From the IMG/VR virus record IMGVR_UViG_2585427737_000015: a DNA stretch of 31,306 bases; one strand, 5' to 3'. The stretch is from a virus. Taxonomy: Duplodnaviria > Heunggongvirae > Uroviricota > Caudoviricetes. Positions 3,099 through 22,565 of the stretch are shown here, one piece after another (the stretch's first letter is position 1; each line of letters starts with the position of its first letter). The translations under genes and the position numbers were made by a program. The notes under the pieces were generated by a model. That model did no database searches, had not been told where the DNA came from, and saw only the letters and a program-made list of their open reading frames with translations.

Positions 3099-3577
3099 TA
3101 TCCCGCCCCCGTCATACCCGTGAATTTAGTCGCCATACTGCCAGCCTTACCGATGAGCGATTCCGCCTGTTTACCGATATCGCCATAAAGCGCGGCCAGT
3201 GATTCATCAACGCGGGTAAGCGACAGCGTAAAATCAATTTTTCGGGGTGTGCCGTCTGCAAAGAAAATACTCCCTGTTTCACTCACCTTGCTGATGACAT
3301 ACATGCCGTAAATCATGCCGGTGCCATCCAGCAACGGCCACGCCCGGCCTTCCTCTGCCATCAGCCTGAGCGTGGTCATCGTCAGCTTTCCGCCGGTCAG
3401 CTCGGGATAAAGCACACCGGCAAGCGTGATGTTTTCCTCGCCAACACCGAGAAACTGAAAGGCATCCCGTTTACCGATACGGGAATTTGACGGCCAGCGA
3501 TAATCTGATTCACGCTGCATGGTCTGGTGTGGCAGCGTCTGGCGCATAAAAACAAACATACCTAACGCGAGCATCAT
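3098..3577 (-). CDS. U: Tail protein gpU (159 aa)
   Basis: ORF track; P2 gpU length; single-nucleotide overlap with D at 3098. Confidence 0.85.
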   Translation of the reverse strand: MMLALGMFVFMRQTLPHQTMQRESDYRWPSNSRIGKRDAFQFLGVGEENITLAGVLYPELTGGKLTMTTLRLMAEEGRAWPLLDGTGMIYGMYVISKVSETGSIFFADGTPRKIDFTLSLTRVDESLAALYGDIGKQAESLIGKAGSMATKFTGMTGAG

Positions 3578-3591
3578 TTTTCGTCACCTCC

Positions 3592-6036
3592 TTAACCGTC
3601 ATGCATCATGCTGGCACGGGCGCGCGCACGTTTATCCCGCTCGTATTTTTCGAGCGCATCCTGTAACTGGCGGTCGAGCTGTATCCCCGGCGTAGTACCG
3701 CCCGTCAGGCTGATGTGATATTCGTTTTTACTCTGGTCCACATAAGAGCGGCCAGCCGGTGCCGTAACCGGCTGATAAGCCTGATAGCCTGCATAAGAGC
3801 TGGTCGCCGGAATATAACCACCGCTGCCATACGTGGCGGCTTGAGTTCTGGCGGCGGTCTGGTCAAGTGTGTCTGACTCTTTGTTGATAACACCGAGTTT
3901 TTCCAGTACCCAGTCAATTCCGCTGCGCAGTTTGTTGAACGCATTAAGCGGCAGCATCAGCGCGTCAGCCAGTGCCTGCCCGAACATGACGCCAGTATCA
4001 CGGCAACGGTTCAGGGTGTCCTGGGTGGCTTTGACCGGGGCAATCAGGTTTTTAAACCACTGCCACGCGGCCTGTAACTTTTCGCCCAGCCAGTCAAACA
4101 CCGGCTTAAGTGGCGTGAACAGTTCCCCCACCGGCGCAAATGCCGCTTTCAGCCCTTCCATCACACCGCCAAAGAATGCGCTGACAGGCTCCCAGTATTT
4201 ACGGATAAGCAACGCCCCGGCGACAATGGCGGCCACCACGGCCACAACCGGCCAGCTAATCGCCCCGATGGCGGTCATAACAGCACTGCCAACCGTCGTG
4301 AAGACTGCCCCCATTGCGCCTGCTGCCGCGATGATGGCATTGATGCCAGTGATAACCGGCCAGGCTACAAGACCAATGGCACCGATGATGCCAATAAGCG
4401 CCAGCGCGCCACCGACAATGAGGCCGATGGTTGACGCCAGTGATTTGTTTTTCTGGATCCAGCCGTCGAGTTTTAACACATACTTTGTGGCCGTCTGCGT
4501 GAGCTTACGCAGTGCGCCTTCCTGCTGGTCAAACAGGTCAGTCCCCACCGCTTCATAAGCGGACTGAAACTCCTTAAAGTCACCGCCGAGGTTGTCCTGC
4601 ATGATTTTAACCAGCTCTTCCGTTTTACCGTCTGAGGCTTTCAGTGTAGCGGTCAGTTTGTCCAGCTTTCCGGTTGAGGCGGCAGTCATCAGCACGGCGG
4701 CGGCTGAACTGGCCTCCTCCCCGAAAATGGTTTTCATATATTCAGCCTTCTGAGACGTTCCCAGCTTGTGTTTATCAAAGCTGGCCTGAATCTCTTTCAG
4801 AATGGTGAACAACGGACGCATATTTCCCTTTTTGTCCGAGGTTTTAACGCCAAGCTCTTTGAGTGCATCCCATGCTTTTCCAGTCGGTGCCTGTAATCGG
4901 GTGACAACGGCACTGCCTCCCGTACCCGCCATTGACCCCCTAATTTTTGTCATGCAGCGCACCTGTCATGGCCGCTGCCTGTTCAAGACTTACACCTGCC
5001 GTCCTCGCAACCGGACCGAGGTAAGTCAGTGCATCACTGAGTCCCTGAAAATCAGCCGCCGACTTATTCATCGTTGCCGACAACACGTCGCCCACATGGC
5101 TGACATCATCATTTGAAAGCTGAAAGGCGGATTTCATCCCCAGCAACAGGGCGCGTTTTCTTCCATCGTGCGATGATTCGCCAGTGCCATATTCAGCGTG
5201 ACCGGCGTTGCCGCCTGAATAGCCGCAGCATCTCCACCCGCTTTCGCAATGATAATCTGCGCACCGGCCGCATCATCCGCTGAGGCGGCGGTATTGTCGC
5301 CGAGCTGGCGCGCCTGTTTGCGGAGCGCGGCCATTTCGGCGGAATCTTTTGCCACACCGAGCACGGCCTGCAATTCTGAGTTTTTCTGCGCAAACTCATA
5401 ACCGGGCATCAGCAGCTTAACTCCGGCCATCGTTCCCGCCGCCGCAATCCCCACACCGGCAGCGCCCACTGAGGCCATATTTCCGGCAAGTTCTTTTCCT
5501 GCCTGATAACGCTGTTTGACTGCGTTAAGTTTTGCCTGTTGTGCACTGACACGCGCCAGCGCGTCACGCTGCCGGTTAAGCTGTGCGGTGGTTTCACTGA
5601 TACGGTTTTTCAGTCCCTGCTCATCATGTGCAAGATTGCGGGTATTAATTCCCACAACGGCCAGTTCCCGCTGCTGGCGTTTAACGGAATCCGTCAGGCG
5701 GTTATATTTCGCCTGTAAGTCCTCCGCCGCACGCTTCGCGGATTCCAGCACTTTCGCCTGAGCACGTGTCGGACGTTCGGTGTTTTTAAACTGTGTGGCA
5801 AGGGCTTCGGCCTCCTGCCGTGCCTTTTCAAGTGCATGACCAGTCACGGCGAGCTGTGCGCTGGTCTTGCGAAATCCCTCAATACGGGATGCGTGACCGT
5901 TCAGCTCGCGCAGTGATTTTTGTGTTTCCCGGATATCCCCCGACAGCGATTTGCTCGCTGTGCGGATGGATTTAAACGGGCGGGATGCCTGGTCAACAGC
6001 CCTGAGCAATACCTGTAATTTTACATTGTTACTCAT
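3592..6036 (-). pseudogene. T: Tail tape-measure gene T, 815-codon span, interrupted by two compensating frameshifts
   Basis: Three abutting minus-strand ORFs: 5134..6036 (300 aa), 4940..5146 (68 aa, other frame), 3592..4962 (456 aa, back in the first frame). All three read as tape-measure sequence (Ala/Gly-rich hydrophobic core). Frame changes sit at a C-run (plus-strand GGG 5149-5151) and an A5 run (plus-strand TTTTT 4944-4948). Confidence 0.8.
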
Positions 6037-10217: not shown

Positions 10218-10745
10218 TTATTGCGGCATTTCCGGCCATTCAGGATTTGCAGGATCCACACGACTGATCAGAACGCTGTAGCGTTCCCATGATTCCAGTC
10301 GGCTACGCTCCTCATCTGTTGCCATGTTCAGTCTGACCGCGCGCTCCAGCGGCAAAATCACGGATTCAGCATCTGCAAGAAGTCTGGCTTTCCGAATTTC
10401 TGCCTGCTGCTGTAATTCCTCTGCCGTATAAATGCGTTTAATCACTTTGCCGTCCTTAAACATCCAGTTCCCTGAAATGTCCGCCCGTCGGTTAGCAGTA
10501 ATATCCGCCACTTCAACAACACTTAATCCATCCGGTCTGATAGCTGTCACATCCTTTTCCACATAGTGGATGATATTATCTTTGTCGTACGCTATTTTTA
10601 TCGTGTCATCAGCAAAATACTTTTGTTCTTCGTACCAGTTCTTACCATCTTCTGAAAAAAACCAGACAACATCAAAGTCCTTTGTCAATTGATATTGTTC
10701 AACCGTTTTTGGATTACCCGCCGTAATATTTTTTAAATGCTGCAT
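10218..10745 (-). CDS. G: Tail fibre assembly protein gpG (175 aa)
   Basis: ORF track; P2 length; directly downstream of H. Confidence 0.8.
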
Positions 10746-10748
10746 AAA

Positions 10749-12998
10749 TTATACCTGCGCCACGTTATACCATGTCCCGTTAATGTATTTCTGCACCGGT
10801 CTGTAATATACGCCACCAATGTTATCGGCAGAGTTTGAGCCGGTATCCTGAACAATAATGCCGGTATATACGCAACCTGACGGAGCCTGATGCGTCCATG
10901 TAGTACCATTATTTGCTGGTTTATATGTAGATGCACCGCCCAGCCGCATGTCTCTCACATAACGTGAATCTGACTCAGTTTTGGTGTATGCACCAACATC
11001 TCCCGCTGAGGGTTTATGAGCAGTTGTATATAGTTGCGCCCATCCAGACCAGTTAGCATCTGTGGTATCTCGTCGGGAACGAATATATGCCGGAGCATGA
11101 GCACCGCTGGTTCCACTCCAGCCAATAAGTAACTCACCCTCTCCTACTGCGGTTACGCCAGTGAGATGAAGCACATTACCATAGGCTGTTGGGTAGCCAT
11201 TGTTGTATGCCTCATACATCTGAATACCTGGTGTCCCCTTTACGCTCCCACCTAATGCATTAACACGGTTTCTGGATACCAGTGTATTAATATTTATATC
11301 GGCAGAGCCATCAAATCTGACACCATTAATATTTCTTGCGTTCGCTAACTTCGTTGCTGTTGCAGCATTTCCTGAAAGGCTGGAAATAAATGGATGTGAA
11401 CAGTAATAACCACGTCCATTTTTAAAATCCAGAATAGCCTGTGCGTTCGTGCTTTCTGTAGCGGGATTAGTTGCCCCCCACTTATATGTCGTTTGACCGA
11501 CGACATAATCCTCTGTCGGAACAATAACCGTTAGCCCTTCCTCTGCAAGAATTTGTACAGGGAAAGCTCTGGCTTCAACATAAAAAACACTACATACATC
11601 ATCATCTTTCAGGCTTGTAACAATGGAATGGATTGAACGCTCATTAGTCTGATACGTCCAGAAATAACCTGCCGCATATGAACCACGATCAGTCCAGCCT
11701 CCGGGCATAACCATGCCATTAAACTCGCAGTTATTCATTACATAATCGCCGTTATAACAACCAGTGGAAATAACAACGCGGGATGCCATTTCTCCTGAAA
11801 GGCTGGCAGCACGGCGAAAGATAACGGGGTACCACTTCCCGGCAACGACATTTGCAGGGGCTGCAAACGAATACTTTCGCATTCCCTTTTTCTTATCCAC
11901 TTCACCTTTGCTGTAAACATTAATGTTACTCAGGAAGCGTTCTTTATCAGGGATATCCGCACCGTTCTGATCTTTCTGAAGACGTTTTTCAGCATTGTCA
12001 TAGGCAGACTTCACCGCCTTTGGCGTTGCAGCCTGCGTTTCAGAATCACTGTTGGTGGCGCTACTGAGCTGGACAAGACCTTTTCGCGCCGTGGTGGCAT
12101 CCTGTGCAGTGTATTTCCCGTTAGCAAGGTCATATGCTGTCTTAACCGCCTTTGGCGTTGCCGCAAGCGTTTCAGAATCGCTGTTGGTGGCGCTACTGAG
12201 CTGAACAAGGCCTTTTCGCGCTGTTGTGGCATCCTGTGCAGTGTATTTCCCGTTAGCAAGGTCATATGCTGCCTTTACCGCTTTCGGCGTTGCGGCGAGC
12301 GTTTCAGACGTGCTGTTAGTCGCACTACTGAGCTGAACAAGGCCTTTTCGCGCGGTGGTAGCGTCCTGTGCGGTATATTTCCCGTTAGCAAGGTCATATG
12401 CGGCCTTAACCGCCTTTGGCGTTGCAGCCAGTGTTTCAGACGTGCTGTTGGTCGCACTGCTTAACTGAGTAAAACCTTTTGCGGTCAGCGAGGCGTCAGG
12501 GTGACGTCGTGACTGTTCATGTTCTGCAATTTTGTCATCAACGTAATCCTGCGTTGCCATCACCGTTGTGGTGTCAATGGTCAGCTCCACTGAGGCCACA
12601 CTGCTGACGATGATGACCATGCGGCAGGTCTGCGAACGCCCTGAGCCTTCGGCAAGGGCTGGCTTATAACTTTCGGCCATGTTCGCCACGGCAATTAACG
12701 TTCCAGCATCATCGTACAGGCCAAGCTCACGCATCCAGAAACCGCCCACCTCCGGCGGAATAACCAGCTCTGCGATAATATAATTACTGTTTCGTTTGTC
12801 CTGACTGATTTTGTTCAGCGCATGTCGCCAGACTTCGTGGATAAGCCCGGTCTGTCCGGCATCCGGGACAGGCAATTTACCACCGCCATCCCCGACGGCC
12901 ATCGTGGTAATGTTGACCTTCCGCCCTCCCGGCGCGGTTGCCGCTGCCAGCTTTGCTGCACCGGCAGTAGTGATAACGGTTTTGAATTTTGTGCTCAT
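10749..12998 (-). CDS. H: Tail fibre protein gpH (749 aa) with four tandem 44-aa repeats
   Basis: ORF track; N-terminus MSTKFKTVITTAGAAKLAAA is P2 H-like; longer than P2 H because of the repeat expansion and a different C-terminal receptor-binding region. Confidence 0.85.
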   Translation of the reverse strand: MSTKFKTVITTAGAAKLAAATAPGGRKVNITTMAVGDGGGKLPVPDAGQTGLIHEVWRHALNKISQDKRNSNYIIAELVIPPEVGGFWMRELGLYDDAGTLIAVANMAESYKPALAEGSGRSQTCRMVIIVSSVASVELTIDTTTVMATQDYVDDKIAEHEQSRRHPDASLTAKGFTQLSSATNSTSETLAATPKAVKAAYDLANGKYTAQDATTARKGLVQLSSATNSTSETLAATPKAVKAAYDLANGKYTAQDATTARKGLVQLSSATNSDSETLAATPKAVKTAYDLANGKYTAQDATTARKGLVQLSSATNSDSETQAATPKAVKSAYDNAEKRLQKDQNGADIPDKERFLSNINVYSKGEVDKKKGMRKYSFAAPANVVAGKWYPVIFRRAASLSGEMASRVVISTGCYNGDYVMNNCEFNGMVMPGGWTDRGSYAAGYFWTYQTNERSIHSIVTSLKDDDVCSVFYVEARAFPVQILAEEGLTVIVPTEDYVVGQTTYKWGATNPATESTNAQAILDFKNGRGYYCSHPFISSLSGNAATATKLANARNINGVRFDGSADININTLVSRNRVNALGGSVKGTPGIQMYEAYNNGYPTAYGNVLHLTGVTAVGEGELLIGWSGTSGAHAPAYIRSRRDTTDANWSGWAQLYTTAHKPSAGDVGAYTKTESDSRYVRDMRLGGASTYKPANNGTTWTHQAPSGCVYTGIIVQDTGSNSADNIGGVYYRPVQKYINGTWYNVAQV
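11964..12464 (-). repeat. Four near-identical tandem 132-bp (44-codon) repeats inside gene H
   Basis: Protein repeat LSSATNS[TD]SET[LQ]AATPKAVK[ATS]AYDLANGKYTAQDATTARKGLVQ x4 starting near residue 179. Nucleotide repeats visible (GTTAGCAAGGTCATATGC recurs about every 132 bp). Boundaries approximate. Confidence 0.8.
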
Positions 12999-13008
12999 TA
13001 TTCCTCAC

Positions 13009-13539
13009 TTATCCGGGGTAAACCGTAATTACATCGCCGTCGTAAGCCACACCACCGGCGAACAGATAGCCGGGAATGTCCCGGGTAATGTTCAGACCAA
13101 TAAGGTGACGGCTTGCAGGTTTGGCATCAGCAATCAGCCGTTCCATTTCCTGATACATTGCCTCTGTGATACCGCTTTCCAGTACACCAATATCGAGCCG
13201 GAAGGTGCCGGGCGGGTCACTGTTTTCCCACCACTCCGTCACGTTGATGAGATAGCCGAGCGGCTCCACCACACGTCGGATTGCACCTATCGTGCCCTTA
13301 TGACAGTGGATGAAATAGGCATCGCGGATAACGGCGCGTTTTGTCGCTTCCGGCCACTTTTCATCCCACCTGTCGACCGAAAACGCCCACGCCAGCCACG
13401 GCAGCAGATTTGGCGGGCAGGTGTCCGGGTTCCACAGCTCACGAATACTGACCGGCGTTTTTTCAATTTCCGCACAGGCTTTCGCGGCAGCGACTTCAAG
13501 CGGTGATGAGCCGGTCGGCAGCAGGCGCGAATCACTCAT
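13009..13539 (-). CDS. I: Baseplate protein gpI (176 aa)
   Basis: ORF track; P2 length and order. Confidence 0.85.
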   Translation of the reverse strand: MSDSRLLPTGSSPLEVAAAKACAEIEKTPVSIRELWNPDTCPPNLLPWLAWAFSVDRWDEKWPEATKRAVIRDAYFIHCHKGTIGAIRRVVEPLGYLINVTEWWENSDPPGTFRLDIGVLESGITEAMYQEMERLIADAKPASRHLIGLNITRDIPGYLFAGGVAYDGDVITVYPG

Positions 13540-19831: not shown

Positions 19832-20575
19832 TTAACTGGCTTTCTTTTTCGGGCGTCCACGTTTTGCCGGTGTCGCACTCCGGCTCTTACGCGTGGCACG
19901 GGTGGCCGCTTTGGGTTGCGGCTCCGGCTTCGGTTTCAGTTCCCGCTCCAGTCGTTCAATCTCTTTTTTGACGCCTGCCTGACAGTCGAGCTGTGTCGCA
20001 CGTTGCAGGTGCGCCAGCGCACCTGCGGCATCACCAGTGTCACGCAGAAACAGACCGGTGATTTTGTGCAGCTTTGCGCGCACTTCATCAGGCATGTCAG
20101 CAGCAGCGGTCAGTTCAAGGGTGTCCGTCAGCAGTCGGATATCCACGGATTCACCGGCAGCGTGAGCGCGCATGGCCGCAAGCGCCACCTCCTCGGTGAA
20201 CATGTACGGCGGGGTGCGGCGGTGTTTACCCGGCATGGTCAGCCCGTACTTCAGGGCATAACGGGCAATCTCCAGCGCACCGGCAATATCGCCGGTATCC
20301 AGACGCCACAGCATGACCGTCATCAGAATGTCATCCTGTGCACCTTTGCCCTGCTCCAGCACGCCGTTCACCCACGGCAACCAGAACGGCAGCAGTTCGC
20401 GTTTTTTCGCGGCCTTCAGCTCTTTTGAATAAATCGCTTTCAGTGTGCGCTGGTCTGCGGCCAGCTTGACCAGCATCTGCTCATAGACAGTTGCATGTCG
20501 CAGCGGGGCGGCTTCCCGCTGCGCGGTCATCGCTGCCGAGACCCGCATCATGTGGCGCTGTGCGGGACTCGTCAT
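19832..20575 (-). CDS. M: Terminase endonuclease (small) subunit gpM (247 aa)
   Basis: ORF track; P2 length and order; basic C-terminal tail. Confidence 0.85.
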   Translation of the reverse strand: MTSPAQRHMMRVSAAMTAQREAAPLRHATVYEQMLVKLAADQRTLKAIYSKELKAAKKRELLPFWLPWVNGVLEQGKGAQDDILMTVMLWRLDTGDIAGALEIARYALKYGLTMPGKHRRTPPYMFTEEVALAAMRAHAAGESVDIRLLTDTLELTAAADMPDEVRAKLHKITGLFLRDTGDAAGALAHLQRATQLDCQAGVKKEIERLERELKPKPEPQPKAATRATRKSRSATPAKRGRPKKKAS

Positions 20576-20578
20576 CGG

Positions 20579-21652
20579 TTACGCTCCCGGCTCTGCGGTC
20601 GCTTTAGCCGGTGTGGAGAAATCACCGACCTTAATTTTTTCCACCAGACAACCGGCGGCGTAGTCCTCCACCACGTAATCAATGTTCATTGACTCGTAGT
20701 TCTCCACGCGGTCGAGTTTCGGGTTTTCCTCAATCACGCGGCGATGGCTGTCATCCATGTAGTAGATGGACAGGTTTTCCAGCTTCGTGATGAGCATCGC
20801 ATCTGCCGGGAAGTACGGGACGCGCACTGCCGGCAGGTTACCGATGCGTTTCTGGCTGATGATGACGTCAGCGGCCAGCATTTCGCTGTTGTCCTGCTCC
20901 TTGTTGACGATGGGGAAATACTTGTCCGCCAGTAGCTGACGCCCCACAATCACCACAAGGTCAGGATCTTCCTGATACCAAGGTTCAATCAGGTTGTTGG
21001 TCGCATCCATCACCAGTGCATCGAGGCTTACATAATCACCGCCCTTACCCACGCGGATGACCTCAGAGGTCGTGTGACCTTCCTCGTCAGTAACCTTGCT
21101 CATCACGCGCGCCGGGGCTTCATTGCGGTATTTCTGCAGCCAGCCGACCGCCACATCCTGCAGCATCTGGTTACTGCTGCGGTCAGAGGTTTCGGCACGC
21201 CTCACGCCGTTAAAACCGGCCATGATTAAATCAAGGGACTGGCGTTTGATAATGGCGTTACGGATACGGAGCTGGAAATCCTGATAACGCGCCCACAGGT
21301 CCAGCGTTTTGTAGCGGATATAAAAATCGAAGTTAATCTGGTCGCATTCGTACTTGTTTGACGCCAGCTTCGAGAAGTCCTTCGGCTGACGCTCGGTGCC
21401 ACCGGCGGTGTCGGTGGTGCTGGCGATGGAGCCGGTGACACCAATACCAATTTTTTCCCCTTTCATTTCGCTGACCGGCACAATGTTGATGCGGGTCAGA
21501 AAGTCAGAGGACTCCTGCATGGTGTTCATCAGGGTCTGGGTGACCGACGGTTCAACGGTGAATTTTTTCGACACATCACCGGCGTCGATGCCGTTCAGTT
21601 CGGCAACACGGGACAGGTAGGCATTAAATTTAAAGCGGGTTTCCTGGCGCAT
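20579..21652 (-). CDS. N: Major capsid protein gpN (357 aa)
   Basis: ORF track; P2 length and order. Confidence 0.88.
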   Translation of the reverse strand: MRQETRFKFNAYLSRVAELNGIDAGDVSKKFTVEPSVTQTLMNTMQESSDFLTRINIVPVSEMKGEKIGIGVTGSIASTTDTAGGTERQPKDFSKLASNKYECDQINFDFYIRYKTLDLWARYQDFQLRIRNAIIKRQSLDLIMAGFNGVRRAETSDRSSNQMLQDVAVGWLQKYRNEAPARVMSKVTDEEGHTTSEVIRVGKGGDYVSLDALVMDATNNLIEPWYQEDPDLVVIVGRQLLADKYFPIVNKEQDNSEMLAADVIISQKRIGNLPAVRVPYFPADAMLITKLENLSIYYMDDSHRRVIEENPKLDRVENYESMNIDYVVEDYAAGCLVEKIKVGDFSTPAKATAEPGA

Positions 21653-21710: not shown

Positions 21711-22565
21711 TCAGCAGTTCGTCATCAGGGCGTCACCGCCACCACCGGTGGCCTTGCTGCGGCGCTGCTGGGTCAGACTTTCGGTGTGGTCGAGACTGTT
21801 TTTCAGGCGGGTGAATGCCTGACTGGTTTCATCCGCCCTGTCAGTCACATCCTGCTTAAGTGCGGAAAAGGCGGTTTCCATCTCAGCGAGTCGCTGCTCA
21901 GTGGCGCTCAGCTTTTCCTGCACATGTTCAGCAACAGCGGTCACCGCTTCATGCACGTCATTCAGACGGGCGTCATCGCTGGCCTGTTTGCGGCCAAAAA
22001 TGGATTTCACCTTTTCGGTCAGGGCGGTGAACACGGTTTCAGGCAGGTCTTCAAATTCCAGCTCAACAGGCGTTGCCACTGAAATCAGGTTTTCAGGGCT
22101 TAATTTGAAGCGGTTCAGGGGGTTGTGTTTTGCCGTGCGGCAGAATTCCAGGTATTCCGTGCCGAGGCTTGCCGGGTCATCGGTGACGGCCAGCCCCACC
22201 AGATAACATTTGCCGGTGTTGGCAAAGTTCGGCTGAATTTCCATTGAGGTATAGACCTTCTGCGCGGCCTTGTTCATCGCGATAAGGTCATCGGTCGGGG
22301 TGATTTTCGCAAACAGCGCCCATTTGCCTTTCAGCGCCGAATCATCGTCAATCTTTTCGGCCTTCAGTTCGGCCACATCGCCATAACGTTTAAAAATGCC
22401 GTCAGGCAGGATGCCGCGCAGATGTTCCAGGTTAATACGGCAACCATAGACTCGCGGGTCAAAGGTTTCGGCCATTTCCTGAATATCCTGCGCACTGATG
22501 ACACGCCCGTCACAGGTGTCACCCTCAACGCCGATACGAAAGAATTTTGAGACTTTTTTTGCCAT
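21711..22565 (-). CDS. O: Capsid scaffolding protein gpO (284 aa)
   Basis: ORF 21711..22631; start placed at MAKKVSKFFRIGVEGD to give the 284-aa P2 length. Confidence 0.82.
   Translation of the reverse strand: MAKKVSKFFRIGVEGDTCDGRVISAQDIQEMAETFDPRVYGCRINLEHLRGILPDGIFKRYGDVAELKAEKIDDDSALKGKWALFAKITPTDDLIAMNKAAQKVYTSMEIQPNFANTGKCYLVGLAVTDDPASLGTEYLEFCRTAKHNPLNRFKLSPENLISVATPVELEFEDLPETVFTALTEKVKSIFGRKQASDDARLNDVHEAVTAVAEHVQEKLSATEQRLAEMETAFSALKQDVTDRADETSQAFTRLKNSLDHTESLTQQRRSKATGGGGDALMTNC

Follow-up and report, generated by a model that had tools for sequence, protein, structure and literature searches.

The phage tail fibre repeat is represented in Pfam by a curated 42-position model (PF03406, Phage_fiber_2), found in the well-studied fibre protein H of phage P2, in side tail fibres of the lambda Stf type and in the collagen-like proteins of EHEC prophages. 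For one of these, EPclB of an EHEC prophage, rotary shadowing tentatively showed the Pf2 repeats as a globular node between stalks (PMC3368898). P2 gpH (AF063097, AAD03286) is a protein of 669 aa with one full unit (aa 178) and one partial unit (aa 222); the partial one extends to AATPKAVK and is followed by a different distal part (TVMDETNKKAPLNSPALTG...). Tail fibre S (gp49) of phage Mu, known for its constant/variable (Sc/Sv) organisation, has one unit. The number of units differs between P2-like phages: Wphi and 186, like P2, have two each, fiAA91-ss has three, and 9W, P2DC1, vB_EcoM-12474II and the Yersinia phages vB_YpM_46 and vB_YpM_115 have four. We searched the literature on PF03406, on the P2 gpH repeats and on copy number or shaft length, and found no paper that describes variation of unit number in P2-type H.

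Here we analyse the repeat array in gene H of a P2-like prophage, carried on a 31,306-nucleotide stretch of viral DNA (IMGVR_UViG_2585427737_000015), which we call the window. With a probability of about 0.88, we read the array as three full PF03406 units and one partial unit that together form the old, constant proximal shaft of a trimeric P2-type fibre. The four-unit array is in itself a known and ordinary feature, built from a repeat with a curated Pfam model in a fibre protein that has been studied in depth. Its discovery value is small, as deposited phage genomes and hundreds of E. coli chromosomes already contain it.

The identification of the gene as a P2-type (Peduoviridae) H, proposed in the original prediction, is borne out by its N-terminal PF12571 domain, by the gene order I-H-G and by its C-terminal tip (YINGTWYNVAQV). 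Gene I upstream and gene G downstream place H within a P2-like late operon of the order V-W-J-I-H-G. The closest described proteins are those of Escherichia phage 9W (OM475431; 748 aa, compared with 749 aa in the window) and Peduovirus P22H4 (LR595869 / NC_049385), each with 88 % amino acid identity at 100 % coverage. Read directly, the 9W protein has units at aa 178, 222, 266 and 310, four in all, and shares its linker and distal module with the window; its array (L002 in our set) is diverged by about 7 % at the DNA level and carries single residue changes, such as ASTGRKG in unit 1. P2 gpH shares with the window the N-terminal domain, the first unit (93 % DNA identity), the order J-I-H-G and the C-terminal tip, but is shorter (669 versus 749 aa). 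The prediction was right that the window has more units than P2, four against two, but it had given P2 H a single segment.

The more distant systems resemble the window in part. In the EHEC proteins the repeats lie between collagen or coiled-coil segments, whereas in the window they run uninterrupted and head-to-tail beside a P2-type N-terminal domain. The last unit together with the linker can be aligned with residues 117-172 of Mu S, with the pattern KGLVQL[TS]SAT[DN]S…NGADIP.K..F..N[LI], and the C-terminal tips are related as well: aa 638-747 of the window protein resemble the Mu S/S' C-terminus (PDB 8ju3, 5yvq) and a short tail fibre (9cuy).

The same gene recurs elsewhere unaltered. It is 100 % identical at the DNA level in 8 complete E. 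coli genomes, among them strain 120899 (CP025916), where a full P2-like prophage annotation surrounds it; the identical 2,250-bp gene also occurs in three viral contigs (L007, L008, L010), and the best 30 E. coli genome matches to H all span exactly 2,250 bp. Among four-unit loci the DNA of the N-terminal domain is 97-99 % identical. In strain 120899, RefSeq splits this H into two pseudogene fragments ('incomplete; missing C-terminus'); positions 20001-20969 and 21780-21992 of NZ_CP025916 (L090) correspond to window 12998-12030 and 11219-11007. The open reading frame is nevertheless uninterrupted across 749 codons, and the same DNA is annotated as an intact tail fibre protein in other genomes. 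The pseudogene calls seem to be an artefact of how a mosaic gene was annotated.

The repeat signal in H is far beyond chance by three measures. Tandem Repeats Finder reports a single tandem array at 11997-12452 (period 132, 3.5 copies, 88 % matches, score 674), a separate repeat search finds 226-nt copies at 132-nt spacing with 88 % and 81 % identity, and Pfam finds four PF03406 stretches that score 266.5 bits, the cut-off being 22. Every unit spans the 42-position model from end to end, the best stretch covering positions 1-41. The span originally given for the array, 11964-12464, is correct: codon L179 of the minus-strand H frame begins with base 12464, and codon 345 ends with base 11964. 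The description of its content as four near-perfect copies holds for the protein but not for the DNA, where identity is 85-88 %, and it holds for three full 44-aa units but not for the fourth, which is partial. The full register slot of unit 4 would be aa 302-345 (window 12095-11964), but the motif is kept only up to ...AATPKAVKSAYD (aa 334), where it turns into the linker (EKRLQKDQNGADIP; NAEKRLQKDQNGADIP). The features are collected in the table. Two by-products of the periodic DNA were rejected as features, namely an internally repetitive 84-aa ORF in another frame of the array and a weak Pfam TPR_20 match below its cut-off.

Table. Features of the tail fibre locus and other genes of the window discussed in the text
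Feature	Coordinates	Strand	Evidence or remark
Trypsin-like (S1) peptidase, 348 aa	8832..9878	-	
Tail fibre assembly protein G	10218..10745	-	PF02413 Caudo_TAP, E 1.8e-33
Tail fibre gene H	10749..12998	-	uninterrupted 749-codon ORF (ORF list); PF12571 and four PF03406 matches (Pfam)
Variable distal (receptor-binding) part of H, aa 350-749	10752..11951	-	distal-module clustering; tip similarity
Linker NAEKRLQKDQNGADI, aa 335-349	11952..11996	-	aligns to Mu tail fibre S residues ~146-160; ends at the constant/variable junction
Repeat unit 4, partial, aa 302-334, through AATPKAVKSAYD	11997..12095	-	PF03406; Tandem Repeats Finder array ends at 11997
Out-of-frame ORF, 84 aa (rejected as a gene)	12011..12265	-	
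Repeat unit 3, aa 258-301, NSDSE variant	12096..12227	-	PF03406; doubled in five-unit arrays, absent in L046
Repeat unit 2, aa 214-257	12228..12359	-	protein core identical to unit 1; 87 % DNA identity, 16 synonymous differences
Repeat unit 1, aa 170-213 (Pfam register)	12360..12491	-	PF03406; nearest foreign unit is position 1 in 34/34 arrays
N-terminal tail-collar / baseplate-attachment domain of H, aa 1-151	12546..12998	-	PF12571, E 1.3e-58
Baseplate protein I, directly upstream of H	13009..13539	-	PF09684 Tail_P2_I, E 1.7e-55
ORF, 261 aa	15508..16293	+	
AAA_13 ATPase, 738 aa	26049..28265	+	

In the proposed reading, the array directly follows the baseplate-binding N-terminal domain of H, and each unit would add one structural module to the trimeric shaft, so that the number of units would determine how far the fibre reaches. 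A longer fibre shaft as a result of the array, as originally suggested, is plausible. PDB sequence and profile searches found no solved structure that covers a unit, the only entries containing one being Mu S and an S/S' chimera (5yvq, 9ki1, 8ju3); in the cryo-EM work on Mu, only the N-terminus was modelled and the C-terminal crystal structure was fitted (PMC11915804). An AlphaFold2 monomer model of aa 140-380, made with no alignment, was all-helical with a mean pLDDT of 42.7 and was set aside as unreliable. The equivalence of one unit with one shaft module is accordingly inferred.

The distal boundary of the constant part is sharp. Distal parts of H among the relatives fall into eleven clusters, eight of which carry the SAYDNAEKRLQKDQNGADIP linker or a close variant, and the class of the window has 14 members. 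One relative with another distal module (L005) shows zero mismatches to the window over gene nt 586-1046 (461 nt) and is wholly unrelated from nt 1047, the same nucleotide at which all other distal classes diverge from the window. The junction is codon 349 (...NGADI|P..., window ~11952), 15 codons past the last unit; array and linker form the constant part of the fibre and everything distal is exchangeable. From these comparisons, host range changes by replacement of all sequence distal to a fixed junction, and not inside the array. For fibre engineering, ...NGADI|P... is a natural swap point, and keeping the array while exchanging the distal part mimics what these phages do.

We considered whether the junction belongs to an invertible fibre segment of the Mu G / P1 C type; phage 186 has a 'Mu-like inversion crossover site' annotated in the corresponding region. 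This candidate was rejected. The DNA of the 186 site is not conserved in the window: with this 26-bp site as the only probe, no counterpart was found at the corresponding position of H, and the closest match anywhere in the gene has 8/26 mismatches and is located elsewhere. Neither the ORF list nor the RefSeq annotation of CP025916 contains an invertase or a second, inverted set of fibre and assembly genes. Downstream of H-G lie the trypsin-like peptidase gene and then the sheath gene.

The proximity of this junction to the array raises the possibility that the units are kept mainly as a DNA substrate for recombination during distal-module swaps, with a secondary role as a protein spacer. The junction lies just distal to the array, the PF03406 repeat also occurs in fibre genes of unrelated prophages, and matches to the array and its flanks are present in 2,116/5,426 complete E. 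coli genomes, lambdoid stf-type genes included. But the sharp break falls in the linker past the array and not inside a unit, P2-type distal modules join elsewhere, after AATPKAVK of unit 2, and selection acts on the protein and not on the DNA, with amino acids fixed while synonymous sites diverge. We therefore regard a mainly recombinational role as improbable, and a proximal protein shaft remains the preferred reading.

The divergence between units bears directly on the age of the array. Compared in the register Q..V, units 1 and 2 are 100 % identical in amino acids and 87 % in DNA (pS 0.48, dS 0.75, dN/dS about 0.01), units 1 and 3 are 95.5 % and 85 % identical (pS 0.47, dS 0.73, dN/dS about 0.06), and units 2 and 3 are 95.5 % and 88 % identical (pS 0.38, dS 0.52, dN/dS about 0.07). 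They differ at 16-20 of 132 DNA positions, almost all synonymous, and the longest exact stretch common to two units is 46 bp. The amino acid identity of the units thus reflects strong purifying selection on the protein, while the units have drifted apart at synonymous sites, with occasional exchange between them suggested by the analysis below. More generally, identity of tandem units at the protein level should be taken as a sign of recent duplication only once synonymous sites have been checked.

Comparison between genomes points in the same direction. Across 34 distinct four-unit arrays, units at the same array position have a mean identity of 93-95 %, compared with 78-89 % for other positions, and the closest unit from another contig lies at the matching position in 98/102 cases. 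The arrays are joined to several unrelated distal modules, in proteins of 642, 696, 736, 740, 749, 764 and 772 aa. Together, the positional matches and the variety of distal modules indicate that the four-unit array predates both the lineages and the module swaps. The four-unit arrangement is accordingly old, and common by vertical descent to many E. coli P2-like prophages and the Yersinia phages.

Four units is also the usual state. Viral contigs searched with the N-terminal domain of H alone gave 426 relatives, of which the best 80 by domain similarity were kept; among their 78 complete H genes, four units are the mode (41 genes), followed by two (23), five (8), and one and three (3 each), proportions that are approximate because the sample was chosen by domain similarity and many of the viral contigs probably derive from draft genomes. 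Three, four, five or six units are seen in database proteins matching H, and the number of units in the family ranges from 1 to 6. Among other Enterobacteriaceae, the H homologues of species representatives (Citrobacter, Salmonella, Buttiauxella, Scandinavium and others) have one to four units, in arrays that always start at aa 173/174. In 307/5,426 complete E. coli genomes, one collinear match covers at least 80 % of the array plus flanks. P2, with its two units, is unrepresentative of its E. coli relatives, among which, as sampled here, four units are commonest. The comparison of H across P2-like phages that the original prediction had called for shows that four units are not peculiar to the window.

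These results leave little room for the original explanation, in which a single P2-type unit was recently expanded into four by slipped-strand or recombinational events. In its favour, units 1-3 are near-identical as protein (95-100 %), the window has two units more than P2, and rare gain and loss of units does happen in the family. Near-identity at the protein level does not, however, imply a recent expansion: 38-48 % of synonymous sites differ (dS 0.5-0.75, for DNA differences of 12-15 %), P2 already has two units and not one, the units are positionally orthologous in 34 distinct arrays on different distal modules, and four units are the modal state. A recent expansion is refuted on these grounds and we give it very little credence.

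Whole internal units are gained or lost on rare occasions, 132 bp each time. Five-unit arrays have the order 1-2-3-3-4, with unit 3 doubled, and the three-unit array of L068 has the order 1-2-4. In one contig of the window's own lineage (L046; IMGVR_UViG_2531839178_000021, positions 3480-4200), units 2 and 4 are identical to those of the window and unit 3 is exactly missing. The H gene of this contig is also cut after ...FLSNI by foreign DNA resembling the end of a mobile element; here a unit was lost in a prophage that is decaying. Such events would proceed by unequal homologous recombination between neighbouring units.

Polymorphism between genomes is about three times higher in the array than in the N-terminal domain (93.8 % versus 98.1 % pairwise identity), with third-codon-position identities of 84 % and 95 %, respectively. 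Synonymous minor alleles match a paralogous unit in 50 cases, with 35-38 expected (z about 4) under a null restricted to synonymous alternatives, in a test that counts alleles and not events. This synonymous-only null replaced an unrestricted count (55 observed, 28.7 expected), which was set aside. The excess is suggestive of some sequence exchange between units.

Unit number is nearly fixed within a distal-module class. All 14 members of the window's class have four units, and one derivative, the interrupted H of L046, has lost unit 3; arrays of three to five units occur with the Mu-like linker, and one or two units with the P2-type junction. We also tried and rejected the array as a contingency locus, in which copy number would switch fast by slippage: its units are 85-88 % identical in DNA with no exact run above 46 bp, and copy number does not vary among near-identical relatives (14/14 with four units, the best 30 genomes all at 2,250 bp). 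A more speculative idea, which we think has a modest chance at best of being correct and is on balance unlikely, is that synonymous divergence is kept by selection as a form of recombination-proofing against unit deletion, with unit number tuned to the distal-module class. If so, fibre reach would be a selected trait matched to the depth of the receptor in the cell envelope.

An assembly artefact, in which collapse or spurious duplication would have altered the true copy number, is the least probable reading of all: tandem repeats can mislead assemblers and many of the homologues in databases are 'partial', truncated where a contig ends, but the identical 2,250-bp gene recurs in 8 'complete genome' assemblies and three viral contigs, the units differ at 16-20/132 positions with at most 46 identical bases running, and the partial proteins examined end at or beyond the distal junction of the array, not within it. 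Because the units are distinguishable, ordinary reads place them unambiguously; the collapse hazard raised in the original prediction is thus low, and mis-assembly of the array unlikely. The partial homologues cut at contig ends include P0004, P0086 and P0101; P0004 (404 aa, 358 member sequences) stops just past the linker, at ...RLFLRNIG. Judging from such protein ends, short-read assemblies may break at the constant/variable junction or downstream of it, rather than within the array.

Some other genes of the window deserve mention. Between the portal gene and the replication region lies an AAA_13 ATPase gene whose product matches PDC-S06, a candidate anti-phage defence family, over nearly its full length (E 4.8e-254). 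The cargo at this site is not the same in otherwise related prophages: strain 120899, whose H is identical, has a Panacea-domain gene and a DUF2975 gene there, and collinearity of the window with CP025916 throughout is ruled out. A 261-aa ORF just upstream of the baseplate gene V, on the opposite strand, has no match in Pfam or PADLOC and is a 'hypothetical protein' in RefSeq. The S1 peptidase gene lies between G and the tail sheath gene, where P2 has fun(Z). Its protease domain matches the protease modules of the defence-system models RT-Protease_XI, LmuA and HamA, and its N-terminus shows a weak match to an ABC-3C C-terminal domain.
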